Assembly: GCA_016187225.1 (NCBI GenBank)
Contig: JACPKC010000010.1
Coordinates: 67,541 to 131,540, forward strand
Direction of reading: 5' to 3'
DNA: 64,000 bases
Source: Candidatus Berkelbacteria bacterium
GTDB taxonomy: Bacteria; Patescibacteriota; UBA1384; JACPKC01
Below the pieces are notes generated by a model. That model was not told where the DNA came from. It did no database searches and saw nothing but the letters and a program-made list of their open reading frames with translations. The position numbers and the translations under genes were made by a program. Of this stretch, positions 33,147 to 63,305 are shown piece after piece (position 1 is the stretch's first letter; each line of letters begins with the position of its first letter).

Positions 33147-33809
33147 TTGAGGAGGGGCGTGTTAAGTTTCCAAAATGATGGCATTCAACCGGCTAAGACG
33201 CCGGCAAATGGAGCGGCAGGCCCAGCGCCTGTTCAACCAGCCAAATCTGCTCTTGACCCAAGTGTGGTAGCAATCAACCCGGAATCAAACGATTCGCTAA
33301 TCGCAATTTTTGCGGGTTTAAGTGTTGCTCTTAGTCTCCTCGGCGGTGTTGCGGCCTCATTTTTGCGGGCCCAAGCGAAAGGAGAAGCTGAAGCCTCAAG
33401 TCAAAAAGTGACGAGCCTTCAGCAGGAATTCGCCTCGGGCGATCTTAAAACTATGCTCGATAAGGCTGGTTTAGTTGAAAAACAGCTCGAGGTCACAAAA
33501 GAATTCTCTGCCGCCCTGCCTTGGCCAAAGCTCTTAAAAGCTCTAGCCGACAAAGTCCCTGGATCGGTTAAATTTACGGCCAATTCTTTTGAAACTGACA
33601 AGTCATTAAGAATTGACGGCTCGGCAAATAATTACGCCGAGGTAGCGCGACTCATGACCGCCATCGAGTCGACGGATGAGTTTTCGGAGATTGCGCTGAC
33701 GAGCGCAACTCTTTCTGAATCTGTCGACGGTAATTCGATTACTTTTTCAATCACGGCCAAATATGCGGCGCCAGTCGCTGGAGGGGATGATGGCGGAAAT
33801 ACAAACTGA
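33147..33809 (+). CDS. pilN: Type IV pilus assembly protein PilN-like
   Basis: It has a single TM helix, a coiled coil and the C-terminal PilN-like block 'LRIDGSANNYAEVARLMTAIESTDEFSEIAL'. It is the first gene of the pilus assembly operon. Confidence 0.65.
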   Translation: MRRGVLSFQNDGIQPAKTPANGAAGPAPVQPAKSALDPSVVAINPESNDSLIAIFAGLSVALSLLGGVAASFLRAQAKGEAEASSQKVTSLQQEFASGDLKTMLDKAGLVEKQLEVTKEFSAALPWPKLLKALADKVPGSVKFTANSFETDKSLRIDGSANNYAEVARLMTAIESTDEFSEIALTSATLSESVDGNSITFSITAKYAAPVAGGDDGGNTN

Positions 33810-34389
33810 ATCAACTAAACATAACACTTTGTTGTGGCTAATTTTAGGCGTGATTGGTTCAGCCGCGGCATTCTATTTATATACCTTGCCTCAAATTCGC
33901 GAGCTCAAGCTTTTGCGCACGCAGTCGGCGACGCTTGAGGCTGATCTTTCAAGCTTAAACGAAAAGAAAACCACTGTTGTTAAATTAAACGACGATCTTA
34001 AAAGGAGCACTGCGCTGACTGACAAACTTGCTCTGGCTGTGCCAGAGGATGAGGCTATCGATGAGCTCATTACTTCACTTGAAAAGATTGTTGAAAAAGC
34101 GGGCATTACTTTGTTGTCGGTTCAGCCGGCAAGCAATGTTGAAACAGGCAAGACAACCGCTATGCTTTCAACCCGAGGCTCATATTCCGGCACAACACTA
34201 TTTCTTGAATTTTTAGAAAAGAACCTTCGTCCGATTGGCGTCAATGATCTTGCACTCACAGCGACGTCGGATATTCAAGGCGCGTCGCTGATTAGCGCCT
34301 CATTCGAGATTACTCCTGCCCAGATTGCCAAGGCCGCACCGGCGGCAGAGACGTCCGCTCAAGACACAGAGACAAAAGGAGCCCAATGA
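33787..34389 (+). CDS. pilO: Type IV pilus assembly protein PilO-like
   Basis: It has a TM helix 'LLWLILGVIGSAAAFYLY', a coiled coil and a C-terminal PilO-like fold. The start is taken at an ATG after the GGAGGGG SD; the ORF-track start at 33763 overlaps pilN. Confidence 0.65.
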   Translation: MMAEIQTESTKHNTLLWLILGVIGSAAAFYLYTLPQIRELKLLRTQSATLEADLSSLNEKKTTVVKLNDDLKRSTALTDKLALAVPEDEAIDELITSLEKIVEKAGITLLSVQPASNVETGKTTAMLSTRGSYSGTTLFLEFLEKNLRPIGVNDLALTATSDIQGASLISASFEITPAQIAKAAPAAETSAQDTETKGAQ

Positions 34390-34637
34390 ATCGGCCCATA
34401 GTAATTGGCATCGGTTTAGGAGTGAATCTCATTCTTGCGGGTGTGACACTTTGGCTGATTATGCGCGCCGTGCCCATGACGTCGGATATTGAAAGCGCCC
34501 GGACAAAAGTTGAACCTGCGCCAAAATTTACGATCAAAGATATCGAGGCGCTTAAATTGGATGAAAAAACCCTGAATGGTGACTTGCCGATCTCGATTGA
34601 TGGAGTTGGGCGTGTCGATCCATACGCGGGGATTTAG
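34386..34637 (+). CDS. Small single-TM protein (83 aa) between pilO and pilB; possible minor pilus-assembly component
   Basis: There is an ATGA overlap with pilO. The TM helix is 'IVIGIGLGVNLILAGVTLWLI'. There is no family match. Confidence 0.45.
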   Translation: MNRPIVIGIGLGVNLILAGVTLWLIMRAVPMTSDIESARTKVEPAPKFTIKDIEALKLDEKTLNGDLPISIDGVGRVDPYAGI

Positions 34638-34642
34638 CAATT

Positions 34643-37153: not shown

Positions 37154-37161
37154 GAGTTCCG

Positions 37162-38268
37162 ATGGTTGAGACGCAATCCACGCAAGCCATGTTGGGCGCC
37201 AACGATCGCTCACTTTCACCACATTTAAGCGAGATGCTTAAATTCGCAATTGAACATAGCGCTTCTGACTTACACATTCAAATCGGCGTGCCGCCAGTTA
37301 TCCGCATCGACGGCAAACTTCGCTCGGTGCCAGATCAGCCCCTTTATACTCAAGAATCGGCGGCCGCCGACGTGCTTTCGAGTCTAGGGACCGTGCAACG
37401 CGAACGCTTTGCGACCGAACGCGAACTCGACTTTTCTTTTACCTTTGAAACGATGCGCTTACGTTGCAATGTTTACTATGAAAAAGGCAACATCGTCGGC
37501 GCTTACCGATTAATTCCAACTCAAATTCGAACTGTTGAACAACTTGGCTTGCCGCCGGTTTTGGTTCAGTTAACCGAACACAAACAAGGACTCGTGATTA
37601 TTACTGGCCCAACTGGCCATGGCAAATCCACCACGCTGGCGGCTTTAATCGACCATATTAATCACAATCGCTCCGAGCACATTATTACAATTGAGGATCC
37701 AATCGAGTACATTTTCGCAAATCAGAAAAGCGTCATCTCCCAACGTGAAGTGGGCTTCGATACCAAAACTTTCGCCAATGCCTTGCGCGCTTCCATGCGC
37801 CAAGACCCGAATGTAATTTTAGTCGGTGAGATGCGCGATTTGGAAACGATGGCTTCAGCGTTAACGCTCGCTGAAACTGGTCATTTAGTTTTCACAACTT
37901 TGCACACCAACTCCTCGGCCGAAACCGCTGATCGCATTATCGATGTCTTTCCGCCGCATCAACAACAGCAGATTCGCTCTCAACTTGCCTCGGTTTTATT
38001 GGGCGTCATTTCTCAACGTCTCCTGCCTAAAATCAATGGCGGGCGAGTTGCGGCGGCAGAAATTATGCTGGGCACAACCGCCGTTCGAAATACCATTCGC
38101 GAGGGCAAGACTCATCAGCTCGACAATATTATTCTCACCGGTTCAGCCGAGGGTATGATTAATCTCGATGCTGTGCTTGCCGGTCTCGTTAATAAGGGGG
38201 AAGTTACAATTGACGATGCGATCAACTGGGCGCGCGATTCTAAACAACTCAAGATTAATATCTTTTAG
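37162..38268 (+). CDS. pilT: Twitching motility (pilus retraction) ATPase PilT
   Basis: 'ITGPTGHGKSTTLAALIDHIN', 'ILVGEMRD', 'GHLVFTTLHTNS' and the AIRNLIRE-like block 'AVRNTIREGK' are present. Confidence 0.9.
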   Translation: MVETQSTQAMLGANDRSLSPHLSEMLKFAIEHSASDLHIQIGVPPVIRIDGKLRSVPDQPLYTQESAAADVLSSLGTVQRERFATERELDFSFTFETMRLRCNVYYEKGNIVGAYRLIPTQIRTVEQLGLPPVLVQLTEHKQGLVIITGPTGHGKSTTLAALIDHINHNRSEHIITIEDPIEYIFANQKSVISQREVGFDTKTFANALRASMRQDPNVILVGEMRDLETMASALTLAETGHLVFTTLHTNSSAETADRIIDVFPPHQQQQIRSQLASVLLGVISQRLLPKINGGRVAAAEIMLGTTAVRNTIREGKTHQLDNIILTGSAEGMINLDAVLAGLVNKGEVTIDDAINWARDSKQLKINIF

Positions 38269-38270
38269 TT

Positions 38271-39353
38271 ATGCCCGAGCCCGTAAAAAAACCCGCCCTC
38301 AAGTTCGAGATTGATATTCCTTTTTTGAATAATGTTTCAGTGAGAGAGAAGTCTTTTTTAGCGCGCCAGCTGGCCACGATGCTTGCAAGCGGTTTGGCGC
38401 TTAATCGTGCCGTGGCTATTCTCGTAGCTCAAACTCAAAACAAAACCCTTAAAACGGCGCTTCAGGGTATTGAAACAGATCTCGAGGGCGGCTTGCCGTT
38501 TTCGGGCGCAATTGCCAAACATCCAAAGATTTTTGACCGAGTTTTCGTGAACGTGGTAATTTCGGGCGAAAGCGTGGGGCGCTTGGCGGATGTGCTCAAT
38601 CAACTTGCCGACCAGCTTGAAAAAGATTCCGGCTTCATGAATCGAGTTAAAGGCGCTCTGGCTTATCCAGCCTTTGTCTTTGTGGCGATGATCGTTGTCG
38701 GCGCAATTACGATGGTTTACATCATTCCGCAACTTCAAAGTGTCTTCGAGGAAGCCGGCGCCGAATTGCCATTTTTAACTCGCATGATTATCGCTATAAG
38801 TCATTTTCTACAAAACTATTGGTGGTTAATTATTATTTTTGTCGTCGTAGGTTTAGCTGTTGGTCGCACATATTTTCGTTCCAAAGCGGGCGAGCGTCTC
38901 TGGGGGCTGATTCAACTTCACCTTCCAGGGCATCTTGGCTACGATATCTATATGGCCAGGTTTAATCGCACCCTGGGAATGCTCGTGCAAGCCGGCACAC
39001 CAATTATCGAAGCAATCAGTGTCACGGCGTCGGTGATGGATAATCTGCTTTATCGCGAGTATTTGGCGGCGGCGGCCGATCAAGTTAAACGCGGCGTCCC
39101 GCTTTCCGTGCCTCTTCAAAAAACCGCGCTTTTTCCGCTCATTGTTGGCCAGATGATCGCAGTTGGCGAGCAAACAGGTCGCCTCGATCAGATTCTCTTA
39201 AAACTCGCCGAGTATTATGAAGAGGAAGCAGATAGTAAAATCAAGCAATTAAGCAGTTTAATTGAGCCGATTGTAATCGTTTTGATCGGTGTTGGAGTGG
39301 GGATTCTTGTCTATGCGATCCTGGTGCCAATCTATAATATCGCACAGTTCTAA
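38271..39353 (+). CDS. pilC: Type IV pilus platform protein PilC (GspF family)
   Basis: It has two T2SSF repeats and about three TM segments. A GspF-type block 'AYPAFVFVAMIVV' is present. Confidence 0.88.
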   Translation: MPEPVKKPALKFEIDIPFLNNVSVREKSFLARQLATMLASGLALNRAVAILVAQTQNKTLKTALQGIETDLEGGLPFSGAIAKHPKIFDRVFVNVVISGESVGRLADVLNQLADQLEKDSGFMNRVKGALAYPAFVFVAMIVVGAITMVYIIPQLQSVFEEAGAELPFLTRMIIAISHFLQNYWWLIIIFVVVGLAVGRTYFRSKAGERLWGLIQLHLPGHLGYDIYMARFNRTLGMLVQAGTPIIEAISVTASVMDNLLYREYLAAAADQVKRGVPLSVPLQKTALFPLIVGQMIAVGEQTGRLDQILLKLAEYYEEEADSKIKQLSSLIEPIVIVLIGVGVGILVYAILVPIYNIAQF

Positions 39354-39870
39354 GGGTTTTACGCTTTTAGAGCTCATGATCGTTATCACGATCGGCGGTA
39401 TTTTAATTAGTGTTGTCGGCATGAATTTTTCGTCAACGCGAAGGCAGGCGCGGGACGCGGTGCGGAAAAGTGACGTTGAGGCGATTCAAACGGCGCTCGA
39501 GCTTTATTACAACGCTCACAATGAGTTTCCCAATTTCAATACCTGGGCAACGAGCAATAACTCGATCGGATCTGGCAATTGGGCCTCGCTTCAGCAGGAT
39601 TTAAGCCCATATTTAAGTTCAATGCCGACCGATCCGGTGAATGCGAGTGGAACTACGCCTGAAAATGGCGGGCTGGCTTACGGCTATCTATCCACAGCCG
39701 CCTATGGTTGCACTGGACAATGGTATGTTCTTGTTTATACACTTGAAGTTGAGAACGATCCCGCTTTAACTCGAAGCCCAGGGATTTCTACTTGCAACAG
39801 TCAAACGCTTAACGATAGCAACCTTGCAAGCGCTCCTTGGACGTTTTGGGTCGGTGTCTCTGGGAGTTAA
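39313..39870 (+). CDS. Type IV pilin-like protein (prepilin with an N-terminal methylation motif)
   Basis: Class III signal 'KG/FTLLELMIVITIGGIL'. The start is ambiguous (GTG 39289 or ATG 39313) because the leader overlaps the pilC 3' end. Confidence 0.75.
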   Translation: MRSWCQSIISHSSKGFTLLELMIVITIGGILISVVGMNFSSTRRQARDAVRKSDVEAIQTALELYYNAHNEFPNFNTWATSNNSIGSGNWASLQQDLSPYLSSMPTDPVNASGTTPENGGLAYGYLSTAAYGCTGQWYVLVYTLEVENDPALTRSPGISTCNSQTLNDSNLASAPWTFWVGVSGS

Positions 39871-39970
39871 AATATGCTAGAGTAATCAAAAGGTATTTAT
39901 CGATCGAAGTTGAGAACGTCTTGGCTCTATCGGACAAAAATTATCACTCACAATAATAAAAGGAGGCAGA

Positions 39971-40465
39971 ATGAATTTACATAGAAGTAAACAACGAGGT
40001 TTCACGCTCCTCGAGCTCCTCGTTGTGGTTGCGATTATCGCGATTTTAGCCGCGGTGATTGTGGCAAACTTAAACTCGGCGCGAAGTAAGGCAAATGATG
40101 CCAAGGTGAAGCAGGATCTCAATGGCGTCGATCAGGCACTTGCAGTTGCGACCGCTGACCCATCGGTTCTTGGATCGGCGCCTTTAAACGCCTTAAATAA
40201 TGGCGGCGGCGTTTTAGTTGATATCGACACCGAAACGGCGCTAACAGTTAATGGTTATCTTAAGACTTTTCCAATTCCACCATCGGGTATAACGCAATAT
40301 AACTATCGTAGCAACTATTCCAATGGGATTTTCGGCTATGTGTTGTGGGGTACACTCTCAACAAAAACTGGCGCAAACAATGACTGCTGGGTTATAAACA
40401 CCGGTAACGCTTTTCAGTCGAACGGCTGTCTTGCCGCCGATACAACTGGTGTAACACTTCCGTAA
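39971..40465 (+). CDS. pilA: Type IV pilin, probable major pilin PilA
   Basis: Strong SD AAAGGAGG. Leader 'MNLHRSKQRG' is followed by 'FTLLELLVVVAIIAILAAV', which is the canonical prepilin peptidase site. Confidence 0.85.
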   Translation: MNLHRSKQRGFTLLELLVVVAIIAILAAVIVANLNSARSKANDAKVKQDLNGVDQALAVATADPSVLGSAPLNALNNGGGVLVDIDTETALTVNGYLKTFPIPPSGITQYNYRSNYSNGIFGYVLWGTLSTKTGANNDCWVINTGNAFQSNGCLAADTTGVTLP

Positions 40466-40478
40466 TTTAAGAATTTTC

Positions 40479-41273
40479 ATGTCGGAGTTTGAGCAAGCGG
40501 TCAATTTTTGGCCGCTTGCGGCGATTTTTGGTCTGTTTTGGGGTTCATTCTTGAATGTTCTTGCTTTGCGCTGGGGTTCAAAGTATCGAGGCTTGACACT
40601 CGCAGAACGGAGTCACTGCCCAAAGTGCCAAAAAATTTTAAATTGGCACGAGCTTCTGCCCCTAATAAGTCTTATACTTTTACACGGCCGTTGCCGAGGC
40701 TGTCGAAAAAAAATTGACTTGCGCTATCCAGGCGTTGAAATTTTAACCGCAGTTTTTCTTGGGGGAATAGTTTTTAAGTATGGGTTGTCAGCTCAAGCCT
40801 TAACTCTGTCAGTTGCCGGGAGTTTGCTTTTGATCGCGGCGCTAGTTGATTTTGAAACTCAAATTTTACCCGATTCTTTAGTTGCAAGCGCTTTCGTTTT
40901 AACTCTCCTTGTAACACTTTTACTGGGTCAATCAGCGCTTGTGAATCTAGCGTTTCCAGTTTCCAGTTGGTGGCGGGGCGCCTTAACCGGCGGGTTGATC
41001 ATCGGCGCGATTTTTCTTCTTACGCGTGGGAAGGGGATTGGTTTTGGCGATGTTAAATTAGCGACCGTGCTCGGATCAGTAGTCGGTATGAGCGGCGCCC
41101 TACTTATGTTGTGGAGCGCGTTTATTTTGGGCAGTCTTGTGGGCGGAACACTTCTACTTCGTCGCCGCGCAACCTTAAAGACCGCTCTTCCATTCGGCCC
41201 CTTTTTATTTGCTGGCTGGCTGATCGCGCTTTTTTGGGGTCGTGACATCATTGCATGGTATACTCAATTATAA
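40479..41273 (+). CDS. pilD: Prepilin peptidase PilD (A24 family)
   Basis: N-terminal zinc-binding 'CPKCQ...CRGC', a polytopic membrane domain and the catalytic Asp motif 'GFGDVKL'. Confidence 0.85.
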   Translation: MSEFEQAVNFWPLAAIFGLFWGSFLNVLALRWGSKYRGLTLAERSHCPKCQKILNWHELLPLISLILLHGRCRGCRKKIDLRYPGVEILTAVFLGGIVFKYGLSAQALTLSVAGSLLLIAALVDFETQILPDSLVASAFVLTLLVTLLLGQSALVNLAFPVSSWWRGALTGGLIIGAIFLLTRGKGIGFGDVKLATVLGSVVGMSGALLMLWSAFILGSLVGGTLLLRRRATLKTALPFGPFLFAGWLIALFWGRDIIAWYTQL

Positions 41274-41292
41274 TATTGACGGGTAATAAGTT

Positions 41293-41796
41293 ATGCGTAA
41301 AAACGATACTAATCAGGGTTTCTCGCTTATCGAACTCTTAATCGTCATGGTTATTATTGGTATGTTGGCAACCGTCGTTACTATTTCGTCTTCAGCCTCA
41401 AGGGCGCAGGCGCGCGATAGTCGCCGCAAATCCGATGTCCAGACCGTGGCCGCGGCGCTTGAAACTTATCGAGTTGAGAACAAAGTTTACCCAACCGAGA
41501 ATAACTTCTCCGGAAGCTGGGACGACCTCAAAGTCGTGCTTTTCCCCGATTTTATTTCCGAATGGCCCGACGATCCACAAGGCAATGCCAGTCAATATGG
41601 CGAGGGGTATGTGTACGCAACCGACTCGCTTGGTTCGGCTTACGCGCTTGACGTCACCTTAGAAGGGGATGAAGACGTAACCTTGCAACCCAACGAAATC
41701 GACGAAACTTTGACAGTTAATCCAGATGAAGATTTTTTCGTCACAGGTATCTATAGTTATGGCGGCGACACCCATTACCGCTTCAGCGGCCGGTAA
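41293..41796 (+). CDS. Type IV minor pilin/pseudopilin-like protein
   Basis: Leader 'MRKNDTNQG/FSLIELLIVMVIIGMLA' is a prepilin motif. Confidence 0.78.
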   Translation: MRKNDTNQGFSLIELLIVMVIIGMLATVVTISSSASRAQARDSRRKSDVQTVAAALETYRVENKVYPTENNFSGSWDDLKVVLFPDFISEWPDDPQGNASQYGEGYVYATDSLGSAYALDVTLEGDEDVTLQPNEIDETLTVNPDEDFFVTGIYSYGGDTHYRFSGR

Positions 41797-42283
41797 GGGC
41801 TTTACCCTTATTGAACTTATCATTTCGATGGCGATCATCGTGATGCTTTTAGGTTTGGGAATTCCAGCTTTTCGACGCTATGGTTTACGAGCTGATCTAG
41901 AAAATGCAGGTGTGACTTTAGCCACTAATATCTTTCGGGCGCGCACTTTAAGTTTGGCGCCCGAAGCGAGCAAAGAAGGTAATATCACGGCCTACGGCGT
42001 TGCTTTTGATGCTCTGAATAATAAATACCGCATTGCGCGCTTTAGTGGCGAGGGGGCAAACGTTCAAGAAGAAAGCGTCGTCGATCAATTTCTTTTACCC
42101 AATCAGGTCGCTTTTTCGGTTGCGCCTGCCGAGCCGATTCTTTTTCCGCTTGCTCTTCAAGGCGAGCCGGCCCAGCTGCCCGCGGATAGCAACCTCGCTC
42201 TTTTACACACTCGACTCGCCCAAAACAACTCGCGGACTATAAACATCAATCAAGTTACCGGTCAAGTCAGCTTAGAGGAGTAA
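41759..42283 (+). CDS. Type IV minor pilin-like protein
   Basis: Prepilin motif 'AGKG/FTLIELIISMAIIVMLLGL'. The start is taken at the internal ATG; the ORF-track start at 41726 overlaps the upstream pilin. Confidence 0.7.
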   Translation: MAATPITASAAGKGFTLIELIISMAIIVMLLGLGIPAFRRYGLRADLENAGVTLATNIFRARTLSLAPEASKEGNITAYGVAFDALNNKYRIARFSGEGANVQEESVVDQFLLPNQVAFSVAPAEPILFPLALQGEPAQLPADSNLALLHTRLAQNNSRTININQVTGQVSLEE

Positions 42284-42284
42284 A

Positions 42285-42905
42285 GTGAAGACAGCTTTCA
42301 ACGCGCCACCGGCGACAAGAGGTTTCGGCTTGCTTGAGGTTGTGCTCGCAACCGGTATTTTGGCGCTCGTTGTTACTGGCGCAGTGGCGCTTTTGAATGG
42401 CGCCTTGCGCCGAGCGAATTTGTCAGCCGAGCGAACGACGGCTATGAACCTTGCGCAAGAGGGGATTGAGCTTGTTCGAGCCGCTCGCGATATCACCTTC
42501 ATTGACGATGAGAATAATGCTTGGGATGCAAATTTACCGATCTCAACCGATGAAGGCACTTTGCAAGCGGCTGGTAGCGATCCTTATGGAATTGCTTATG
42601 TGCTTGTACCGGGAAGCGGTGGTCTTTATGCATGGCAACTTAGAAAAAATTACCCGCCCACAGCATTCATTGGCGGTGGGATCGCAAATGGCATCCAAAC
42701 CATCCCACTCAATGATATCGATTACCAGCGTGAGGTTTATGTAACCGTGCCATCACTTGGTTACGTTACGCAGGCTGGCTTGCCAAATGGCGTCACCGAT
42801 GACGATATTATCCGCAAGATTAAGGTAATTGTGCGATGGGGAGATAGCGCCGGGCAGGCGGTTGAGTCGATTACTTATCTCACTAATTGGCGAACGGGAA
42901 CGTGA
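42285..42905 (+). CDS. Type IV minor pilin-like protein (PilV/FimT-like)
   Basis: Prepilin-like N-terminus 'RG/FGLLEVVLATGILALVV'. Confidence 0.65.
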   Translation: MKTAFNAPPATRGFGLLEVVLATGILALVVTGAVALLNGALRRANLSAERTTAMNLAQEGIELVRAARDITFIDDENNAWDANLPISTDEGTLQAAGSDPYGIAYVLVPGSGGLYAWQLRKNYPPTAFIGGGIANGIQTIPLNDIDYQREVYVTVPSLGYVTQAGLPNGVTDDDIIRKIKVIVRWGDSAGQAVESITYLTNWRTGT

Positions 42906-43492
42906 TGACCAAAGGCTTCACTCTTATAGAGGTGCTTATTGCTTCATCGATTTTTGTTGGAGTGCTAATGATCGGCACAATCTCTTTCAGTTCAACAAGC
43001 ACAAAAAGTGAAGAGGTGAAGCACATTCAAACCACAGCGCAAACCGCGAGATTGATTGCCGAGGCGATTTCACGCGATGTGCGAGCCTCTACCGGTGAGA
43101 AAGCGCCCGATGGCACATATCTGCAGTATCCTTTTACGCTTTTTAGTAACAATCAAAAAGTAACCTCTCTCGTATTGGGCGTAGCGAGTGGCGACGCACT
43201 CGAAATTGCGCGCTACGATCCGACTACGCAAGCTATCGTTACAAAGAAATATGCCGTAACTCTAAATGGCAATGGCGAAGAAATTTTTTCGGTCAGTAAA
43301 AATGGGGGAGTGGCCGAATCGCTTCTTCCAACTGGTTACTCAATTCAAGGCGTCTATTTTTGGGCTGTAACGCATGAACTTGCGGCCGATCGTTTTTATC
43401 CTTTTGTGAAATTCAGTTTTGCTGTTGTTCATAATGAGTCGGGCACTTCACAAAGAATCAGCTCGGCCGTTGCCACGCGGGAACTGTTCTAA
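42905..43492 (+). CDS. Type IV minor pilin-like protein (PilW-like)
   Basis: Prepilin motif 'MTKG/FTLIEVLIASSIFVGVL'. The ATG at 42905 gives a short leader; the ORF-track TTG at 42887 is an alternative. Confidence 0.72.
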   Translation: MTKGFTLIEVLIASSIFVGVLMIGTISFSSTSTKSEEVKHIQTTAQTARLIAEAISRDVRASTGEKAPDGTYLQYPFTLFSNNQKVTSLVLGVASGDALEIARYDPTTQAIVTKKYAVTLNGNGEEIFSVSKNGGVAESLLPTGYSIQGVYFWAVTHELAADRFYPFVKFSFAVVHNESGTSQRISSAVATRELF

Positions 43493-43644: not shown

Positions 43645-44778
43645 GTGCGTATTTTCTTCATTCTGGCTTTCAGCCTCCTCTCGGCCGTGCCTACCTGGGC
43701 GAAGCTAAGCGAGCAGGAGGTCCGAGCTGTTCTCATCGGAGTGGAAGAAGACAATTTAAACGATCGCTATAGCGAGTCGTGGTGGACACGAGAATTTCGT
43801 CTTTTCAGTGGCACGAACGACGAGTGGTCGCTTGATTCTTACACTCGACAACATGTGCAAAAAGAAATCAGTCGACTCCGGAGTGGCAAAACTCCACTCC
43901 GTATCTGGGAGTATGATCCAGGTCATGCGATTGTAGTCATTTACCATCTCTGGGATAAAGATCAATCCAGGCTTGTAACGAGTTCAATCGCGCACCTTGT
44001 GCGAGAGGAGGGTCGCTGGAAACAGTCGGCAAGTTCCGGAATCTGGTTGAATTATAGTGTCCTCGGTTTCCCGCGAGCAACTCCAGCTTATCTTGATCAG
44101 GATTTCGCAAAGTCTAAAAGGAACTTCTTGAACAAGAAACCCAAGAAGACTTTGGTGACCGCGGCTCAAAAAGCGCTTAAAACACTTATCCCAAAGTACG
44201 ATCTGGGGGGAACATTGTCTTCGAGTAAGTGTCTGCGTGTCATACTTTGCGAGGGTTGGAACGAGCAACGTAAAAAGTCAACCATCAAACTTTTAATTGA
44301 GCTCAATCAACCACTTACTTCAAACACATACTCAAAATACGTCTTGTTCGAGGTTGGATTGGACGACCTGGCAACAGGGAAAACGCTTGTCGTGCGTCCA
44401 CTCGATGAAAATGGAATTTTTGATTTCCCAAAGGTAGCGATTTCATACGAACTAGCCCCTCAAGTTGCGTTTGGGCCGACACGCCAGGCGCTTGCCGAAG
44501 CGAAAGGCGCGTATAAACAGGGGTGTGTTTTGTTTGCATCCTGGTGCGCCCTGAACCGACTCGATCGCGTTCAGACCTACTTTTCTTCTGACAAGCAGGG
44601 GAAAGTATGGTGGCAGGCGGCTTTCCCATTCGCCAAACTAACGTGGCAGAATGTCGAGCTCGTTGAGTTTAGCTCCGCCAAGGTCAAGCTCATCTTGCCC
44701 ACCCGGCACGGAAAAACCGCGGTTGTCTTAGTGAAAGAAGGTAATCGTTGGCGCGCCCAGTCGGTCGACAATGAGTAG
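43645..44778 (+). CDS. Secreted hypothetical protein (377 aa) downstream of the pilin genes
   Basis: GTG start with an AGGAGG SD. Signal peptide 'FFILAFSLLSAVPTWA'. No family assignment. Confidence 0.6.
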   Translation: MRIFFILAFSLLSAVPTWAKLSEQEVRAVLIGVEEDNLNDRYSESWWTREFRLFSGTNDEWSLDSYTRQHVQKEISRLRSGKTPLRIWEYDPGHAIVVIYHLWDKDQSRLVTSSIAHLVREEGRWKQSASSGIWLNYSVLGFPRATPAYLDQDFAKSKRNFLNKKPKKTLVTAAQKALKTLIPKYDLGGTLSSSKCLRVILCEGWNEQRKKSTIKLLIELNQPLTSNTYSKYVLFEVGLDDLATGKTLVVRPLDENGIFDFPKVAISYELAPQVAFGPTRQALAEAKGAYKQGCVLFASWCALNRLDRVQTYFSSDKQGKVWWQAAFPFAKLTWQNVELVEFSSAKVKLILPTRHGKTAVVLVKEGNRWRAQSVDNE

Positions 44779-56308: not shown

Positions 56309-56461
56309 GTTCTTTCTCGCGTTCTGACTAGGAGCCGCGGAGAGTTGTCGGAGAGCGTTGCTCAAAGACAGTGCCCCTCCTTCCCGGCTGCCCCTCGGGT
56401 CTGGTTCCAGCTTGCTGGCGCCGGCCTGGTCAGAACATGGGGAAGAATAAAGAGGAAGCTA

Positions 56462-59434
56462 ATGTCAGAAAATCACGAGCAATCGAGAGCTAATCCAACG
56501 CCTGAAGGTTCGCATCAAGTTGAGAGTCAGGCAATTTCGCATATCCAAAATGCAATTCCTGAATATCAGCAGAATACGCCAAGTTTCGTAGCGTACAACT
56601 CGCACACTACTCAATCTATTGCTTCTGTTCGCGCTCAAATTGCAAACTACACTGAAAAACATCGCTTGAGTCAGGAAGCGCTTGCTATCCCGCGCGCGAG
56701 CATGCTTGGCAAAATTAAACAATCGCTCACGGTTCCCGCCACACCCGAACACCCAACTCGACTCCAGACTTTTTCCTCAAAGTTTCGAGAGTTTTGGCAC
56801 AAATCAAGCACGCGGTGGGCGCGTTTCGGCGCTGGCGCCGTTGCGACCGGTACAGCCTTCGTGGGCGTTGCCACAGCTAATCCGGTTTTAATTGGTCTTG
56901 GTTTAAGTGGCCGAGTCGCGCTTTCTGGAGCGGGCGCTTTCGCCACCTCTCAAACTTCTATGGAGGGCCGCGATTTGCGCCGTGAAACTAACACCAGCGA
57001 AAAACTCTCACCAATTCGTTGGCTAAAGGGTATCTTTAATAAAAACGCGCTTGCTTTAACTCCTCGAGAGCTTCAATCGATGCAAGTTGAGGAAAGGCAG
57101 GAGCGTTTAGGCAAAACTCTTGCAACGGCCCGAGCAATGGGCGCCGGGAATGTTTTTGATGTTACCAGCCAGCCAACGGCTCTTGAGCAACTCGTCACTT
57201 ATTCTCTGCATACCACGCGCCGGGTTGAACAAGTGCGCCAGGCGCTTCAGAATCGTTTAGAGAGAACTAAATCGAAAGATGCCGGAGTTCAAGCGCAGGC
57301 GCTTCAAAAGTTTGATCAATACAAACTCAACGCAACTCTAAATCGAATTCATATTCACCGATCAAAGTTTTTTGATAATCAAGAAGCCAAGATCGAGCGT
57401 GAAAATTTTGTTCAAGCGGTGGAAAATCATGCAGTCAACAATTTGGTTGAGGCTAAGCAGACTGCTAAAAAGCGCACCTGGATTGCCGCCGCATGGGGCG
57501 CGGGTGCGGCTTTGGTAACGGGATTAACGGGTTTAAAACGCATTGAAACGGCTGAACTTTCCTCCAATTACGGCGAAGGTGTTGGGCCGGCGCTCAAACG
57601 TCTAGTCGAAGGAATTAAGAACATTCCGGGCAATCTAAAAGCGATGGCTGAACGCATCTACGACGATTATTTGCGGCCGACGCCAGAAGTGACGGTTCCC
57701 CCTGCCAGTATTTCTTCTACCGTTCCTGAAGTCATTGGCAGTTACGCTTATCAAAAATCACTCTTGCAAGCCATCGAGAAGGCGCGTGAAACTGGCACGA
57801 ATGCGCCAATTTGGCAAGCGCTCACTGATCTTAAGAAGCAGGGAATTGTTTTAAGCGATGTCTTGACAGCAGACAATAAGAACGAACAGGGTCTCTCTTT
57901 CATTGATTACCTCAAGTTAAACGTTGATCGTTTTCAATCGCCAGAGGAACAGCCGGCGTTGCACAAGCTACTTTCCAGTCAGATCGATGCTCATGGCATC
58001 AGTTCAAGCTATGTCAATGAAAGTCATATCAACTACGCCAACGCGCGCGGTATCAGCACAACTCTTCACGGCAAAAAACTTGAAGCGATGTTCGATAGTC
58101 ATGGCCGTGTGGCGGATTTAGAACTTGGCGGCGTCAATCGTCCGGATCTAATTGAATATATCTCAACTAGCGATGGCCGCTTGTGCTTTGATGAAGTTGC
58201 TTTTAGCGCCGATCACCCGATGCCGGAAGTTGCGCGTCGAAATCCTTTTGCTTTGCCGCAACTGGTTCAAGATGAAATGGTACAGGCAACCGGTAAATTG
58301 CCAGCCACCGACGTTATTGAGCAGCCACAACCGATCGATGCTTTTATTGGGGCGCATAAAGGCGTTAAATACTATGAATATAACTTTGGTGATCATGAGC
58401 TAGTGACTTTCACGCAACCGAGTGGAACATTTGAAGTTTGGGAAAAAGTTGATCTAGGCGTGCGCGGAGTCGGCATTCAACCGGCGGCCGAATTTAGGGA
58501 AATTTTTCAGGGCGCGGAACTGCCAAAGCCAGATTATGGCGTTGAGTATCAGGGCGAGTATCAGGTTTCATTTGAGAATGACTTTGGCGGTCCGATCACG
58601 GCCGAGCGAGTTGCTGGTTTCAGTCAAGAAGAGTTAGCGCACTTCAAGAAAGTGGCCGCCGATCGAGAATCGATCACTCGGTTCTTGAGTCGGCACAGTA
58701 TTGAGAGCCAAAATTTCTTTGTGAATGCGGAATTAGTTAATAGCAAGAATGCGGCTGATGGTACCTGGACAACGTTCTATAATCCAAACGCCCAGTTTGG
58801 TAGCCCCGATACCGGTGTAAAGATTCGTTTCGACGAAGTTGGTCAGGTACAAGAAGTCAAAATGGCCCACATTCCAGTGAACGTTGAGGAAACCCGTCGC
58901 CTCGATGCCTATGTGAGCGAAATGGCCCGTCAGGCGGAGCAGAGTGGTACTGGCGTGAACACTGCCGAAACCGCACGGCTCGATGATGCAGTTCGCGCAC
59001 TGGCTCGCGGAGATCAGGCCAAAGCCACAGTTACTCCAGTTGCTTCGTTTGTAACGAACTCAATGGTGAATACATCGGTTCTGGATGCGCGACCTGAAGT
59101 TGTAGCCCCGCCTATTCAACAAGATGTTATCCATGAGCCAGTAGTAAAGGTTCCAGCGCATACTGATTTTCAAACGTCGATAATGTCGCCTGCGATAGAG
59201 CAGGTTCAGACTCAAAATGAACTTCCTCGAATCGATCTCGCGCCTGAAATTGCGCAACCAGAAGCAATCACTTCAAGCGAAGTACCATTTATGCAAGTCA
59301 TTCCTGAATCGGTTAACGAGACATCTCAAGCGCCGCGCTTGCCTGTAATTTCAGAAAATGTTGAACCGGCTGGATCGGTAGGAGAGAGCGGAGTTTTGCC
59401 GGTGATTCAAGTTGATTCCGAACTCGAAAAATAA
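56462..59434 (+). CDS. Large hypothetical protein (about 990 aa) with two Gly/Ala-rich hydrophobic segments and a Pro/Val/Glu-rich C-terminus
   Basis: The start is taken at the ATG after the AAGAGGAAG SD. The hydrophobic segments are 'GAGAVATGTAFVGVATANPVLIGLGLSG' and 'WIAAAWGAGAALVTGLTGL'. No recognizable catalytic motif. Confidence 0.6.
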   Translation: MSENHEQSRANPTPEGSHQVESQAISHIQNAIPEYQQNTPSFVAYNSHTTQSIASVRAQIANYTEKHRLSQEALAIPRASMLGKIKQSLTVPATPEHPTRLQTFSSKFREFWHKSSTRWARFGAGAVATGTAFVGVATANPVLIGLGLSGRVALSGAGAFATSQTSMEGRDLRRETNTSEKLSPIRWLKGIFNKNALALTPRELQSMQVEERQERLGKTLATARAMGAGNVFDVTSQPTALEQLVTYSLHTTRRVEQVRQALQNRLERTKSKDAGVQAQALQKFDQYKLNATLNRIHIHRSKFFDNQEAKIERENFVQAVENHAVNNLVEAKQTAKKRTWIAAAWGAGAALVTGLTGLKRIETAELSSNYGEGVGPALKRLVEGIKNIPGNLKAMAERIYDDYLRPTPEVTVPPASISSTVPEVIGSYAYQKSLLQAIEKARETGTNAPIWQALTDLKKQGIVLSDVLTADNKNEQGLSFIDYLKLNVDRFQSPEEQPALHKLLSSQIDAHGISSSYVNESHINYANARGISTTLHGKKLEAMFDSHGRVADLELGGVNRPDLIEYISTSDGRLCFDEVAFSADHPMPEVARRNPFALPQLVQDEMVQATGKLPATDVIEQPQPIDAFIGAHKGVKYYEYNFGDHELVTFTQPSGTFEVWEKVDLGVRGVGIQPAAEFREIFQGAELPKPDYGVEYQGEYQVSFENDFGGPITAERVAGFSQEELAHFKKVAADRESITRFLSRHSIESQNFFVNAELVNSKNAADGTWTTFYNPNAQFGSPDTGVKIRFDEVGQVQEVKMAHIPVNVEETRRLDAYVSEMARQAEQSGTGVNTAETARLDDAVRALARGDQAKATVTPVASFVTNSMVNTSVLDARPEVVAPPIQQDVIHEPVVKVPAHTDFQTSIMSPAIEQVQTQNELPRIDLAPEIAQPEAITSSEVPFMQVIPESVNETSQAPRLPVISENVEPAGSVGESGVLPVIQVDSELEK

Positions 59435-59540
59435 TCTTTGAGAGTCTTAGAGCTTTTCACTTTGTGTGTAAAGCTTGATAGGCGTTCAAAGCGGAACGTT
59501 AAAAATTTAGAAAAAATAAGAAGGAAGGGGGTACTCAAAG

Positions 59541-60455
59541 ATGGGTACTCGTAAAAATGGGAACGTTTTTTTTCTTATCGTCGCGCTGGTGGTGAGTGTG
59601 ATGACGATACCAGTGTTCGCACTGGGTTTTCTCGGGCCAATCCTGACTTTCGGGATGTGGTTAGCCGAACAGTTTCGTGACCAGCACCATCGGGCGGAGA
59701 CTCATTCGCCGACGGTTTCATTCGTAATTCAGGTGCCTGACAAGTATCGTCAGCGCGCCGATGAATTTCGGATCGAAACCGACATGGTGATAATCCCGCC
59801 AAGCGAGTCGGGCTACACGTACCGACTCATTAAGGAAGATGGTGGGATGCTTTGGCCAACGACCGTCCGCGTCTGGACTCCGACTTCGGGGTATGAGATT
59901 GAAAAGGTCGAACTGCGGGAGGGGAACCACGTTGTCGATAAGATCGAAGGCAAGCGACTGAAGGCGATGAAGTATTTCGACCTTCAGTTGCCAGATTCGG
60001 TCGGTAACGCGCGGGGTTCGCCCGACCACTTCGAAGTGGTCTTCTACCTTCCGGACGATGAGGAGGAGCGCGTGTCGTGTTCCTTCAGTGTTTTGGCGCT
60101 GACGATCTACGACTGGTATCTGCAGTACGATGAACTGCAAAACCAGCGGATTGGGCGCCGAATGGCTGAAACGCCGCGCCAACTCCACCCTGAGCGGACC
60201 GAGACGGTGACGGTAATCGTTGAGACCGAGACCGGTCTGACGGTTATCGACACCGTAGGGGTGAATCCGCAGGACCGGGCGGCAATCGCTTTCTCGGAGA
60301 AGGTTCAGCCGGGTGTCTATCGCATTCGGGTCAAACCGGGTGCGGTCCGCATCGGTCTGGACCGGCCCGGAGTGGCGACTCCGCCGCCGATTCAAGACGG
60401 TTTCTACGCCGTCGCGCCTGGGTCGCAAACCCAGATCACATTGAAAGGGAGGTAG
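59541..60455 (+). CDS. Membrane-anchored hypothetical protein (304 aa) in a GC-rich segment
   Basis: SD AAGGAAGGGGG. N-terminal TM hairpin 'VFFLIVALVVSVMTIPVFALGFLGPILTFGMWL'. Local GC and codon usage (CGG/GGG/GTC-rich) differ from the flanks. Confidence 0.6.
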   Translation: MGTRKNGNVFFLIVALVVSVMTIPVFALGFLGPILTFGMWLAEQFRDQHHRAETHSPTVSFVIQVPDKYRQRADEFRIETDMVIIPPSESGYTYRLIKEDGGMLWPTTVRVWTPTSGYEIEKVELREGNHVVDKIEGKRLKAMKYFDLQLPDSVGNARGSPDHFEVVFYLPDDEEERVSCSFSVLALTIYDWYLQYDELQNQRIGRRMAETPRQLHPERTETVTVIVETETGLTVIDTVGVNPQDRAAIAFSEKVQPGVYRIRVKPGAVRIGLDRPGVATPPPIQDGFYAVAPGSQTQITLKGR

Positions 60456-60460
60456 AAAAG

Positions 60461-61237
60461 ATGAAAATTTTTTTCATCTTGTTAGCAGTTTTTTTTCTGG
60501 CGGGTCTGCCCACCAGTGCGCGTGGGTATTTGGTACCCGGCAAGAACCCGCAGTCGCCGGCGATCCGGAACGCGGGCAACGAAGTGACGGCGCTCCGGAT
60601 CGCCCAGGAGAAGGGCTGGCGGGTCTACCAGTTGCCCGTCAATACCTACGTGGGTAACTACGGCGCTTCCGGCGAGTTTGTCCGGGGTGTCTTGCCCAGG
60701 GGCGCCTGGATGGGCACAGACGGTACCCACGAGTACGTCGTGGGTTATACCGACGGCCGAGGGGTTTGGCGTGGGTGCGGAAACCTGACCGATCGCATCC
60801 CACCGCCGCCGCCAGTGCGCATTCCACCACCATCGCCGCCGAAGCCGCCGCCCCTCATCCCCTTCATACCGATCACTTCGGGTCTCGTGGTGACTCACGA
60901 GTGGCGGGGTGAGAAGAGTGGCGCGGCGACCGCCAGCGAGTTCTTAACTCGCAACCCGGTTCAAGCGCCGACTATTGTCGGGGATGCCAAGGTGAGCATC
61001 AGCCAGGTGCAAACCCAGGCTCAACCCCTGGCCTTCCCAGACTTTAATATTTCGGCTTTGTCTTCGGCAAACGCCGAAACCGGGCCGATCCAAAACAACA
61101 ACTCCGCCACCTCCCAGGCGAGTAACGTGAACACCGTGCCGATCGGTGTGAACACCGGGCCTGGGAGCGTGACGGTGACTGGGAGTGGCGCGGGTACGCA
61201 AACCGCGCCCACCCAGCAGAACAATTTGATCAGATAG
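60461..61237 (+). CDS. Secreted hypothetical protein (258 aa) with a Pro-rich linker and an N/S/T-rich C-terminal repeat-like segment
   Basis: SD AAAGGGAGG. Signal peptide 'FFILLAVFFLAGLPTSARG'. Polyproline 'IPPPPPVRIPPPSPPKPPPLIP'. The C-terminus 'IQNNNSATSQASNVNTVPIGVNTGPGSVTVTGSG' resembles the repeats of the next gene. Confidence 0.6.
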   Translation: MKIFFILLAVFFLAGLPTSARGYLVPGKNPQSPAIRNAGNEVTALRIAQEKGWRVYQLPVNTYVGNYGASGEFVRGVLPRGAWMGTDGTHEYVVGYTDGRGVWRGCGNLTDRIPPPPPVRIPPPSPPKPPPLIPFIPITSGLVVTHEWRGEKSGAATASEFLTRNPVQAPTIVGDAKVSISQVQTQAQPLAFPDFNISALSSANAETGPIQNNNSATSQASNVNTVPIGVNTGPGSVTVTGSGAGTQTAPTQQNNLIR

Positions 61238-61399
61238 CAACAAGGAGGAGTTGCTGTCTGACAGAGTCTTACCCCGAGCTTCGGCTCGGGGGATATTTCC
61301 TCTAGTCAAATCATGTTGACTGGAGGAAAGTATCAATTGAGGGCGTGCGCTGGTCGAAGCGGGCGAGAGTGCAAATATCGGAAAGGTGGTGAATAAACT

Positions 61400-62230
61400 A
61401 TGCAAAAATCTATCGCAATCGTTGCGTTTGCCTTGATGGTGACAGCTGGATCCTCAAGTGTATTCGCGGCGACCGTGCAAAATAACAACAGCTCTACGAG
61501 TCAGAGCCAGAACACTAACGCCGTTACAACGGTTGTTAATACTGGCAGTGGCTCCGCGGCTGGTTCAAGTAGTTCGGCGAGCGCCCAGGATTCGTCAACG
61601 AATCAATCGAACGAGAGGCAATCAACTTCGACTTCGCAAAGTTCGGGCACTGCGACTACAGGTTTGGTGCAAAATAACAATGTTAGCACCAGTCAAAGCC
61701 AGAACGTAAACGCCACCACAACGGTTGTTAACACCGGCAGTGGGAATGTGAGCGGCTCGGCGAGCGCCAGTGGCGGTCAAGCGTCAGAAACAACGCAAAG
61801 CAACTTTGCTTCTGGAAACAGCCAAAATCGGACCGAAAATAACAACAGTTCGATTAGCCAAAGCCAGAACGTGAATTGCGGCACAACCGTTGTCAATACC
61901 TCATCAGGTGATGCCTCTGGTGCGTGTGCGGCGGCAGGTAGCCAAACGGCAACTACGACACAGTCGAACACAACCGAACAGACTCAAACGAAAAAGAATG
62001 AGACCAAGATTGAACAAGCCCAATCAGTGGCACAAGCAACTTCAGTGGCTGGTGTTCCAACCACAACCACTCAAGTCCCGCCGGTTACAACCAAAACCGA
62101 GCTTCCGAAAGAGCTCCTGAAGACGGGTGCAAATACGGTTGCTCTCGCGCTTGGTAGCGCAGTGATCTCAGCCGGTGGCGCAGCATTCGCTCGTCGCAAG
62201 CAGATGGTCGCAGATCTCATCGTTGGCTAA
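61400..62230 (+). CDS. Surface repeat protein: signal peptide, three tandem repeats of about 38 aa (VQNNNxSTSQSQNxNAxTTVVNTGSG...), Thr-rich stalk and a C-terminal LPXTG-like sorting signal
   Basis: Three tandem repeats are visible. The C-terminus 'LPKELLKTGANTVALALGSAVISAGGAAFARRKQ' is a motif + hydrophobic helix + basic tail. Confidence 0.7.
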   Translation: MQKSIAIVAFALMVTAGSSSVFAATVQNNNSSTSQSQNTNAVTTVVNTGSGSAAGSSSSASAQDSSTNQSNERQSTSTSQSSGTATTGLVQNNNVSTSQSQNVNATTTVVNTGSGNVSGSASASGGQASETTQSNFASGNSQNRTENNNSSISQSQNVNCGTTVVNTSSGDASGACAAAGSQTATTTQSNTTEQTQTKKNETKIEQAQSVAQATSVAGVPTTTTQVPPVTTKTELPKELLKTGANTVALALGSAVISAGGAAFARRKQMVADLIVG

Positions 62231-62255
62231 TGCTAACGGTATGTTTTAAGGGGCC

Positions 62256-62281
62256 AAAACGACGCGGAAACGCGTCGTTTT
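62256..62281 (+). terminator. Rho-independent terminator after the repeat protein gene
   Basis: Perfect 11-bp stem AAAACGACGCG-GAAA-CGCGTCGTTTT followed by T-rich sequence. Confidence 0.85.
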
Positions 62282-62321
62282 GCGTTGAAGGAGGGGGAGC
62301 CATCTGGTACACTACCGAACC

Positions 62322-63305
62322 ATGGAAGAGCAATTCGATGAGGGTAAACTCAAACTCTACGATCTTCTCAAACTCGGAGAGAAAGAAACGTTGATCCGGA
62401 CCATCGAAGCCGAAATGGCACTGCCGGAGTTTTGGGCTGACCGAATCCGCGCTGAAACTCGTTCAAAAGAGCTGGCGAGTGCCAAATCACTCATCGAGGA
62501 GTGGGAGCGCGCAGAGACTCCAGAGAGTTTACGAACGTTAGAACTCAAAGCAGTGTTGGCCGGCCAGTACGATGCCAGCAACGCAATCGTCTCGCTTCAT
62601 GCCGGTGCTGGTGGCACTGAAGCGCAGGATTGGACGAGTATGCTCAAGCGAATGGTAGAGCGCTGGGCGGAGCACAAGGGATTTTCAGTGACCCTGCTTG
62701 ATGAATCCCGCGGCGAAGAAGCCGGACTCAAATCCGCAACGCTCAAGATTGAGGGGCCATACGCCTATGGATACCTCAAGGCTGAAGCTGGGGTTCACCG
62801 TCTTGTCAGGATCTCTCCGTTTGATTCCGATAAAGCCCGCCATACATCATTCTCGCTCGTAGAAGTTGTACCGGAACTACGCGAGGTAGGGGATATAGAG
62901 ATCGACGAAAAAGATCTACGGATCGATCTCTTCCGAGCCGGTGGCCATGGTGGTCAGAATGTGAATAAAGTAGAAACGGCGGTTCGCCTTACACATATTC
63001 CGACCGGAATTGTTGTAACATCACAGAACGAACGATCACAGGCACAGAATCGAGAGTTGGCAATGAAGGTGCTGATTGCAAAGCTACAGGTACTTGCCGA
63101 ACAGGCACATCTCGACAAGATCTCTGAACTGAAAGGTGAGCATCGGAAGGTAGAGTGGGGGAGTCAAATTCGTTCATACGTCCTCCAGCCGTACCGGCTG
63201 GTGAAGGATGTTCGAACGGGTCATGAAGAGTCTAATGTTGATGCCGTGCTCGATGGTAATCTCGATCCATTTATAGAAGCGTATCTCGAACAACAGGTAA
63301 AATAA
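62322..63305 (+). CDS. prfB: Peptide chain release factor 2 (short form, 327 aa)
   Basis: SPF motif '[15 protein letters not shown]' and GGQ motif '[25 protein letters not shown]'. No in-frame upstream extension (stop at 62286) and no CUU-UGA-C frameshift site found. Confidence 0.85.

Follow-up and report, generated by a model that had tools for sequence, protein, structure and literature searches.

We analysed a 64,000-nucleotide stretch of a Candidatus Berkelbacteria genome (contig JACPKC010000010.1, positions 67,541 to 131,540; the window below, with positions counted from its first letter) and focused on a gene near its end that encodes a repeat-bearing surface protein. Candidatus Berkelbacteria belong to the candidate phyla radiation (CPR, or Patescibacteria), mostly uncultivated episymbionts in which surface proteins mediate contact with the host. 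The gene lies between cysS and prfB, after three genes without family assignment, and hairpins at 61272–61291 and 62260–62281 set it apart from both neighbours; a ribosome-binding-like GGAAAGGTGGTG stretch lies upstream of its open reading frame (ORF). An initial annotation made without database searches had described an ORF with a signal peptide and repeats at this position. We found it as described, and the 276-amino-acid (aa) product is identical on contigs of two independent Logan assemblies. From the N terminus, the protein comprises a signal peptide, three modules of 47 aa, a stalk, the pentapeptide LLKTG, a hydrophobic segment and the basic residues RRKQ:

61400–62230, forward strand: repeat surface protein gene, 276 aa (ORF list; orthologues lie just upstream of prfB at the loci L005, L013 and L014).
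61400–61468, forward strand: predicted Sec signal peptide, aa 1–23 (MQK, a hydrophobic core, then SSSVFA before Ala; read from the sequence).
61472–61612, forward strand: module copy 1, aa 25–71 (73 bits with a hidden Markov model (HMM) built from the three copies in the window).
61664–61804, forward strand: module copy 2, aa 89–135 (81 bits, same three-copy HMM; DNA repeat family D1).
61829–61969, forward strand: module copy 3, aa 144–190, with Cys160-x15-Cys176 (84 bits, three-copy HMM).
61970–62113, forward strand: Thr/Gln/Pro-rich stalk, aa 191–238, including the conserved LPKE before the pentapeptide (from the sequence).
62114–62128, forward strand: putative sorting pentapeptide LLKTG, aa 239–243 (codons CTC CTG AAG ACG GGT; LPKTG in orthologues).
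62135–62227, forward strand: hydrophobic segment, aa 246–264, RRKQ, aa 265–268, and the C-terminal MVADLIVG (hydropathy scan and alignment).

The whole protein matched no Pfam or NCBIfam family (Pfam E ≤ 0.1). Its signal peptide reads MQKSIAIVAFALMVTAGSSSVFA up to the predicted cleavage site, which is followed by Ala, and the same n-h-c layout with an A-x-A-type cleavage site is seen in the aligned orthologues. At the other end, the tail LPKELLKTGAN is followed by a hydrophobic stretch of 19 residues, not the 21 of the initial annotation, which was right about the motif and about RRKQ; the eight residues MVADLIVG then complete the protein and place LLKTG 38 residues from the C terminus.

Orthologues of this protein were hard to find. 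A word-indexed homologue search returned nothing, the index being swamped by low-complexity candidates. When 1.84 billion representatives were searched exhaustively with phmmer, the one match was P0112 (49% identity). It is the 5′ portion of an orthologue that carries a frameshift and lies on a contig of 3x coverage; a third module and the tail of this orthologue are encoded in the other frames. Two further loci came from scans of GTDB genomes and JGI metagenomes with degenerate patterns. All three relatives (L005, L013 and L014) lie between cysS and prfB, upstream of prfB, and the source of L013 is also named Candidatus Berkelbacteria. These orthologues carry two or three modules, and their stalks differ except for LPxE. 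At the position aligned with LLKTG, all three have the canonical LPKTG, as seen in the tails DLPKELPKTGAD..RKKQATTTLADLIVS (L013), ALPAELPKTGAD..RQKFAKSASLIVG (L014) and DLPNELPKTG-ANTMALAGL..RRKQQLAAELILG (L005). It follows that the LLKTG of the window, found in the assemblies of both samples, derives from LPKTG by one base change (CCN to CTG). On the LPXTG-anchor model TIGR01167 (curated cut-off 15.9 bits), the L013 orthologue passed as a whole protein with 19.1 bits and its tail scored 24.3; the L014 tail scored 13.2 and the 55-aa tail of the window protein, taken alone, 17.3. An extension after the basic residues is kept throughout the family as ADLIVG, ADLIVS, ASLIVG or AELILG (aa 269–276 in the window protein, at 62204–62227).

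A second protein of the window had been proposed to share this tail, and both its ORF and its KLASSGAN-transmembrane (TM) segment-RRP ending were confirmed:

28894–30546, reverse strand: PKD-domain surface protein (PKD domains, E = 9e-16; orthologues P0002–P0005).
28987–29001, reverse strand: its pentapeptide LASSG, aa 516–520, followed by a TM segment and RRPFHGNE (LASTG or LASSG in orthologues).

The exact PKD protein is deposited in GenBank as MBI2590007.1 under 'Candidatus Berkelbacteria bacterium', and its C terminus reads ..KLASSGAN-LIIVLLIASILSGIVSYFII-RRPFHGNE. In orthologues of 37–45% identity, the pattern L-A-S-[ST]-G-[AG]-[NS] is kept and the preceding linker has diverged. The PKD and repeat proteins are the only two non-polytopic proteins of the window with a C-terminal hydrophobic segment and a basic tail. 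We surveyed the fetched Berkelbacteria loci for such tails, and every non-polytopic protein with a C-terminal TM segment and basic tail had L[PAVL]x[ST]G abutting the TM segment. Three of these proteins had LVSTG and two had LASTG; LLKTG, LASSG and LAATG were each seen once. Together they represent at least five protein families unrelated to each other; one example is P0020, an unrelated Berkelbacteria Kelch/PKD protein with the tail LVSTGAN-TM-RR. Putative substrates of the LAXTG type are thus represented by the PKD family (LASSG/LASTG) and by a 270-aa protein (LAATG). The window proteins, 19,766 residues in all, contain L[PAVL]x[ST]G 13 times (6.6e-4 per residue). Given this background, its placement before the TM segment in at least five unrelated families is far beyond chance.

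The initial annotation had read the shared motif as L-x-x-[ST]-G-A-N. Its first part recurs, as L[PAVL]x[ST]G, but the residues after the Gly vary (AN, AD, GN, AS, NP and VG, in TGAD, TGGN, TGAS, TGNP and TGVG among others), and 'A-N' is therefore not part of the signal. By comparison of these tails, the predicted sorting motif relaxes LPXTG/LAXTG to L-[PAVL]-x-[ST]-G, and the idea of a sortase-type signal common to the repeat and PKD proteins is supported, with the motif conserved in both families and LPKTG in the repeat protein orthologues. The PKD family also keeps IIRRPFHG after the TM segment (window tail 28894–28920); extensions of this kind are unusual for LPXTG signals.

Neither the 64-kb window, searched with the regular expression TLxTC and, for nearly all ORFs of at least 110 aa, with Pfam, nor its 10-kb flanks yielded a sortase. 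Elsewhere in Berkelbacteria, the PF04203 sortase P0113 (locus L007, 4280–5137) starts 68 nt downstream of P0020, and used as a query it retrieved 249 relatives, several of them named 'sortase [Candidatus Berkelbacteria bacterium]'. The sortase that matters here is the following:

5126–5962 of contig L009: sortase P0125 (GenBank MBI2589792.1; PF04203 match; TIGR01076).

P0125 scored 60.9 bits on the generic sortase model TIGR01076 (cut-off 39.35). Its contigs come from exactly the two samples that carry the repeat protein, SRR12113424 and SRR12113420, which represent a groundwater community rich in Berkelbacteria. The tetranucleotide correlation between the P0125 contig and the window is 0.96 (pieces of the window correlate with each other at 0.93–0.94, other Berkelbacteria at 0.08–0.74), and the accessions of P0125 and of the window PKD protein lie 215 apart. 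P0125 therefore belongs to the same metagenome-assembled genome as the window, and the search for a sortase gene proposed in the initial annotation found one in this genome. With the recurrence of the tail motif in other proteins, neither of the two conditions that the initial annotation had set for refuting its reading applies. The P0125 gene stands directly behind that of a Kelch/PKD protein ending in TTLVSTGNPAW-TM-SRHK. At a further locus (L011), sortase P0118 (8001–8903) stands behind the 270-aa protein, which ends in NLAATGVGD-TM-RGR. Sortase genes are thus found immediately downstream of motif-tailed proteins in three genomes (L007, L009 and L011). Genes of this Berkelbacteria sortase clade always stand behind an LVSTG- or LAATG-tailed protein and lie two small genes from murJ.

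To place the enzyme, we compared P0125 with the models of the sortase classes. It fell below every class A–F model, with 64.3 bits for class C, 62.8 and 71.4 for class D and 54.3 for class E (NF033747, cut-off 160), against cut-offs of 140–165. Across 15 sortases of the clade, there is no variation in the catalytic residues His (GHSS), Cys (LMTC) and Arg or in the Tyr of a GV[AV]HY motif; the clade further shares an invariant GHSSYYWWD and a conserved C-terminal ..IELIPGL. In a sequence alignment with Clostridium perfringens SrtD (4d70), the GV[AV]HY Tyr falls on F92 of CpSrtD. That position corresponds to Tyr229 of SrtE1, in the beta3/beta4 loop, which has been proposed as a determinant for Ala at P3, and SrtE1 accepts both Ala and Pro there (Kattke et al., PMC5148588). 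Plausibly, the same Tyr is the reason why the second residue of the motif can be Pro, Ala, Val or Leu in Berkelbacteria. By profile scores and alignment, then, the candidate enzyme is a member of a CPR sortase clade that lies under all class A–F cut-offs and has a class-E-type Tyr; the earlier suggestion of a lineage-specific sortase stands in this sense and no other. Sortases are common in CPR (PMC6744442). The searchable literature yielded general statements, and we found in it no description of the substrates or recognition motifs of CPR sortases.

Taken together, it is likely that the repeat protein is a cell-surface protein of Candidatus Berkelbacteria that a sortase anchors to peptidoglycan. 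The tail architecture, the conservation of the motif, the presence of a sortase and the linkage of sortase and substrate genes are all observed; the following route is what we infer. The protein would be exported by Sec, its signal peptide being cut after VFA, and would stay in the membrane through its C-terminal hydrophobic segment, with RRKQ as a stop-transfer signal. Membrane-bound P0125 would then cut LLKTG between Thr242 and Gly243 and pass the protein to peptidoglycan, leaving three folded 47-aa modules displayed on the Thr/Pro-rich stalk. The PKD protein (LASSG) and the Kelch/PKD protein upstream of the sortase (LVSTG) would be further substrates of P0125. Genes for peptidoglycan synthesis are present in the window as a complete dcw cluster (MurE, MraY, MurD, FtsW, MurG, MurC, MurB, FtsQ and penicillin-binding proteins).

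The proposed system resembles the LPXTG wall proteins of monoderm bacteria in its Sec signal, a pentapeptide about 35 residues from the C terminus, the hydrophobic segment and Arg/Lys, a Thr/Pro-rich stalk, a genome-encoded His-Cys-Arg sortase and the exact LPKTG of the orthologues. It differs in the LLKTG of the window protein, in a conserved post-basic extension of 8–11 residues, in its CPR host and in the new 47-aa passenger module. The likeness to the class E/LAXTG system of Streptomyces coelicolor (SrtE1/E2 and the long chaplins ChpA–C; PMC5148588) lies in substrates with a residue other than Pro at P3 (LASSG, LASTG, LAATG and LVSTG), in the Tyr at the SrtE1 Tyr229 position and in the combination of an anchored multi-domain protein with a secreted protein that shares its domain. 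Unlike class E enzymes, P0125 reaches 54 bits against 160, with class C and D models scoring about as well; P3 in Berkelbacteria may also be Val, Leu or Pro, and there is no sequence similarity to chaplins. The anchoring mechanism would thus be the familiar sortase pathway extended to a poorly studied group, and current understanding is not overturned. For one CPR lineage, the window and its related loci give a set of putative substrates with the motif L[PAVL]x[ST]G-TM-basic and a candidate enzyme with a class-E-like specificity determinant; with the motif as a rule, the wall-anchored surfaceome of Berkelbacteria can be predicted.

We next considered what the tail would anchor. The initial annotation had counted three tandem repeats of about 38 aa; three copies are real, but the unit is 47 aa long and is separated by variable spacers, not repeated with a 38-aa period. 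Protein self-comparison placed the copies at offsets of 64 and 55 aa. At the DNA level, only a 64-nt core is recognizable (75% identity, spacing 192 and 165 nt), and Tandem Repeats Finder reported nothing at the module DNA because the copies are too diverged. Third-codon identity between copies is 0.32–0.45, and about half of the identical residues are encoded by different codons. Hence the repeats are old and have been preserved by selection at the protein level; they are neither low-complexity noise nor an assembly artefact, and the module is under purifying selection. No indel is needed to align the 14 copies, which come from two families of proteins in four genomes; the alignment gives the consensus xxQNNNsstsQaQNVxxtxVVNTGsGdaxGsxxaaGxQxaxtnQxN, with 13 invariant positions in the set from the window and P0112. 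In the one or two copies closest to the wall, Cys occupies unit positions 17 and 33, symmetric about a TGxG turn, and this pair is kept in the membrane-proximal copies of all four orthologues. The Cys pair fits a disulphide-stapled beta-hairpin or adjacent solenoid rungs. The module is probably based on a beta-hairpin, with the wall-proximal copy disulphide-stapled. Neither the single modules nor P0112 matched any Pfam or NCBIfam model, those of curlin and chaplin included, even at E ≤ 10, and the comparison with curli and chaplin families suggested in the initial annotation therefore came out negative. Among billions of proteins searched, the module was seen in four Berkelbacteria populations only, and on that evidence it is a previously undescribed, lineage-restricted orphan. 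The G+C content rises to 0.57 at 60001–62000, against about 0.47–0.49 elsewhere; the rise coincides with the Pro/Gly/Ala/Ser/Thr-rich module genes and probably comes from amino-acid composition rather than foreign origin.

Such a composition could also belong to a disordered, possibly O-glycosylated spacer that spans the wall, or to a low-complexity coat, with no specific fold or partner. Ser, Thr, Asn and Gln make up 54% of the mature protein, and with no other domain to display, a role as a hydrophilic brush on the cell surface is conceivable. AlphaFold2 gave a predicted local distance difference test (pLDDT) score of 37.8 for the whole protein (2-sequence alignment), with values below 50 almost everywhere and long beta-strands assigned by DSSP at low confidence, and a score of 46.5 without secondary structure for a single module (six copies as alignment). 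Both predictions are unreliable and speak neither for nor against the beta-solenoid or amyloid-like fibre suggested in the initial annotation, and the lack of a confident fold means that the module might be partly disordered. However, 14 indel-free copies in four genomes and two families, with 13 invariant positions and a conserved Cys-x15-Cys, speak against a spacer. The protein sequence has persisted although silent sites have reached saturation, and it is the spacers between modules that vary freely, as true linkers do. We therefore regard a mere spacer as unlikely.

The tail could instead be a plain anchor, its helix and RRKQ holding the protein in the cytoplasmic membrane with LLKTG and LASSG left unprocessed, and some of the points that weigh against sortase anchoring fit such an arrangement. 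The hydrophobic segment (aa 246–264) is Ala/Gly-rich and just moderately hydrophobic, with a mean Kyte–Doolittle value of 1.84. The window protein lacks the canonical Pro, and as a whole it scores 12.5 bits on TIGR01167, below the cut-off; for the PKD and Kelch proteins, the tail reaches just 13–15 bits or gives no match. To our knowledge, Leu at the second motif position is undocumented in a sortase signal. The conserved MVADLIVG after the basic residues, which would be cytoplasmic in a plain anchor, is atypical for LPXTG signals and could mean another role for the tail. There is also a CPR precedent, in that PamC, PamD and PamR of the Pam pilus have been proposed to be anchored by nothing more than a C-terminal helix (bioRxiv 10.64898/2026.03.03.709456). 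Like the proteins studied here, they belong to the CPR envelope and combine a signal peptide with one C-terminal helix, and the PKD protein gives a weak, sub-threshold match to the PamR model (18 bits, cut-off 300). In the Berkelbacteria proteins, by contrast, a pentapeptide abuts the helix, and there is neither a Pam operon context nor significant similarity. A plain anchor would not account for a pentapeptide that is kept while the flanking linkers diverge and that always abuts the TM segment in at least five unrelated families. Nor would it account for the canonical LPKTG of the orthologues, one of which passes TIGR01167, or for sortase genes that are physically coupled to such proteins, one of them in the genome of the window. 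On this balance, a plain tail anchor is quite improbable, and we retain sortase anchoring as the likely reading of the tail.

The initial annotation had missed a fourth copy of the module, which lies in the gene upstream of the repeat protein gene:

60461–61237, forward strand: partner gene, encoding a 258-aa secreted protein with a predicted signal peptide, a globular part, a Pro-rich linker and no anchor (ORF).
61085–61225, forward strand: fourth module copy, at the C terminus of the partner, aa 209–255 (self-comparison; 31 bits with the module HMM).

The partner protein matched no Pfam or NCBIfam family. The order of partner gene and repeat protein gene is the same in L005, L013 and L014, and the partner counterparts end in one module (L013 4879–5787; L005 2541–3203; more weakly L014 29–562). 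Between the partner and its L013 counterpart, the module alone can be aligned and the N-terminal parts cannot. This conserved pairing of a variable secreted protein that bears one module with an anchored three-module protein suggests module–module association, by docking or co-assembly. To go by sequence and gene order, such association would tether the partner to the anchored protein or co-assemble it there. The pairing of an orphan module with an unanchored neighbour is best taken as a hint of a docking or co-assembly function. A more far-reaching model can be drawn from this, which we put forward tentatively and as fairly unlikely. The module would be a new self-associating beta-module, and the sortase-anchored three-module scaffold would capture or co-polymerize with single-module secreted proteins of variable N-terminal domains, served by a CPR-specific sortase clade of relaxed P3 specificity (Pro/Ala/Val/Leu). 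If true, this would be a cohesin–dockerin-like or chaplin/curli-like display in an ultra-small episymbiont, possibly for host attachment.

The same pairing bears on whether the module forms a functional amyloid or fibre, as chaplins or curli do, with the anchored three-module protein nucleating module-bearing secreted subunits. The modules are Gln/Asn-rich with long beta-strands in the low-confidence prediction, and an anchored multi-module protein combined with a secreted single-module one resembles the long (LAXTG-anchored) and short chaplins (PMC5148588) and CsgB/CsgA. With CsgB/CsgA and other Gln/Asn-rich beta-repeat proteins, the Berkelbacteria pair has in common imperfect Gln/Asn/Ser-rich repeats with Gly-containing turns, and a repeat shared by a surface-attached and a secreted protein. 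It differs from curli in lacking any HMM match, in a unit of 47 aa with a predicted disulphide instead of about 22 aa, in attachment through a putative sortase signal and in having no CsgG/E/F-type secretion apparatus. The partner, moreover, consists largely of a domain without repeats and has just one module, which is not how a fibre subunit is built; the modules are polar, whereas chaplins are hydrophobic; no chaplin, curlin or other family matched even at the permissive threshold used for single modules; and the predicted strands come from unreliable structures. A fibre of this kind is doubtful, and we see little chance of it. Sorting of the tail by a non-sortase system (exosortase/PEP-CTERM, rhombosortase/GlyGly-CTERM or archaeosortase-like), raised in the initial annotation, is extremely improbable: the GlyGly-CTERM model MprA_tail matched weakly and below its cut-off of 19.7 (14.7 bits, and 18.0 for the tail alone), the tail has no PEP, GG or PGF motif, no exosortase- or rhombosortase-like protein was found among the window ORFs scanned with Pfam, nothing else points to such a system, and there is a sortase whose gene is linked to proteins that bear the same tail.

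The window also carries housekeeping genes and a type IV pilus operon (33147–43492; PilN, PilO, PilB, PilT, PilC, PilD and pilins). The PKD gene lies divergently beside the pilus operon both here and in another Berkelbacteria genome (L006), an arrangement that suggests a functional link between the pilus and a PKD protein that would be wall-anchored.

Several ORFs matched no Pfam or NCBIfam family (56345–59434, 59541–60455, 20517–22826 and 25646–26668, both on the reverse strand, and 43645–44778; 990–1029, 304, 769, 340 and 377 aa, respectively). The first two lie between cysS and the pair of module genes; we considered these 990-aa and 304-aa upstream genes (56345–60455) as part of an operon with the pair and rejected this, as they are not conserved beside the orthologues. 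Downstream, the gene for RF2 (62322–63305; SPF motif) is short (327 aa) and uninterrupted, with a PCRF match from profile position 75 onwards. We considered a programmed frameshift and dismissed it, since the ORF is complete in itself and its orthologues have a similar length; the small overlapping ORF at 62230–62394 is not a frameshifted N terminus of RF2. An Fe/Mn superoxide dismutase (12500–13132; both Sod_Fe domains, E = 2e-40 and 6e-29) is encoded near an NADPH-dependent FMN reductase (10178–10750), and a superoxide dismutase in a CPR genome hints at oxygen exposure. Finally, 7–10 kb past the end of the window (L001, 17107–20831) and downstream of ribosomal protein and tgt genes, there are two large genes with DUF8128 and TrwB/type IV secretion system coupling-protein-like domains, possibly part of a type IV secretion or DNA-uptake apparatus.

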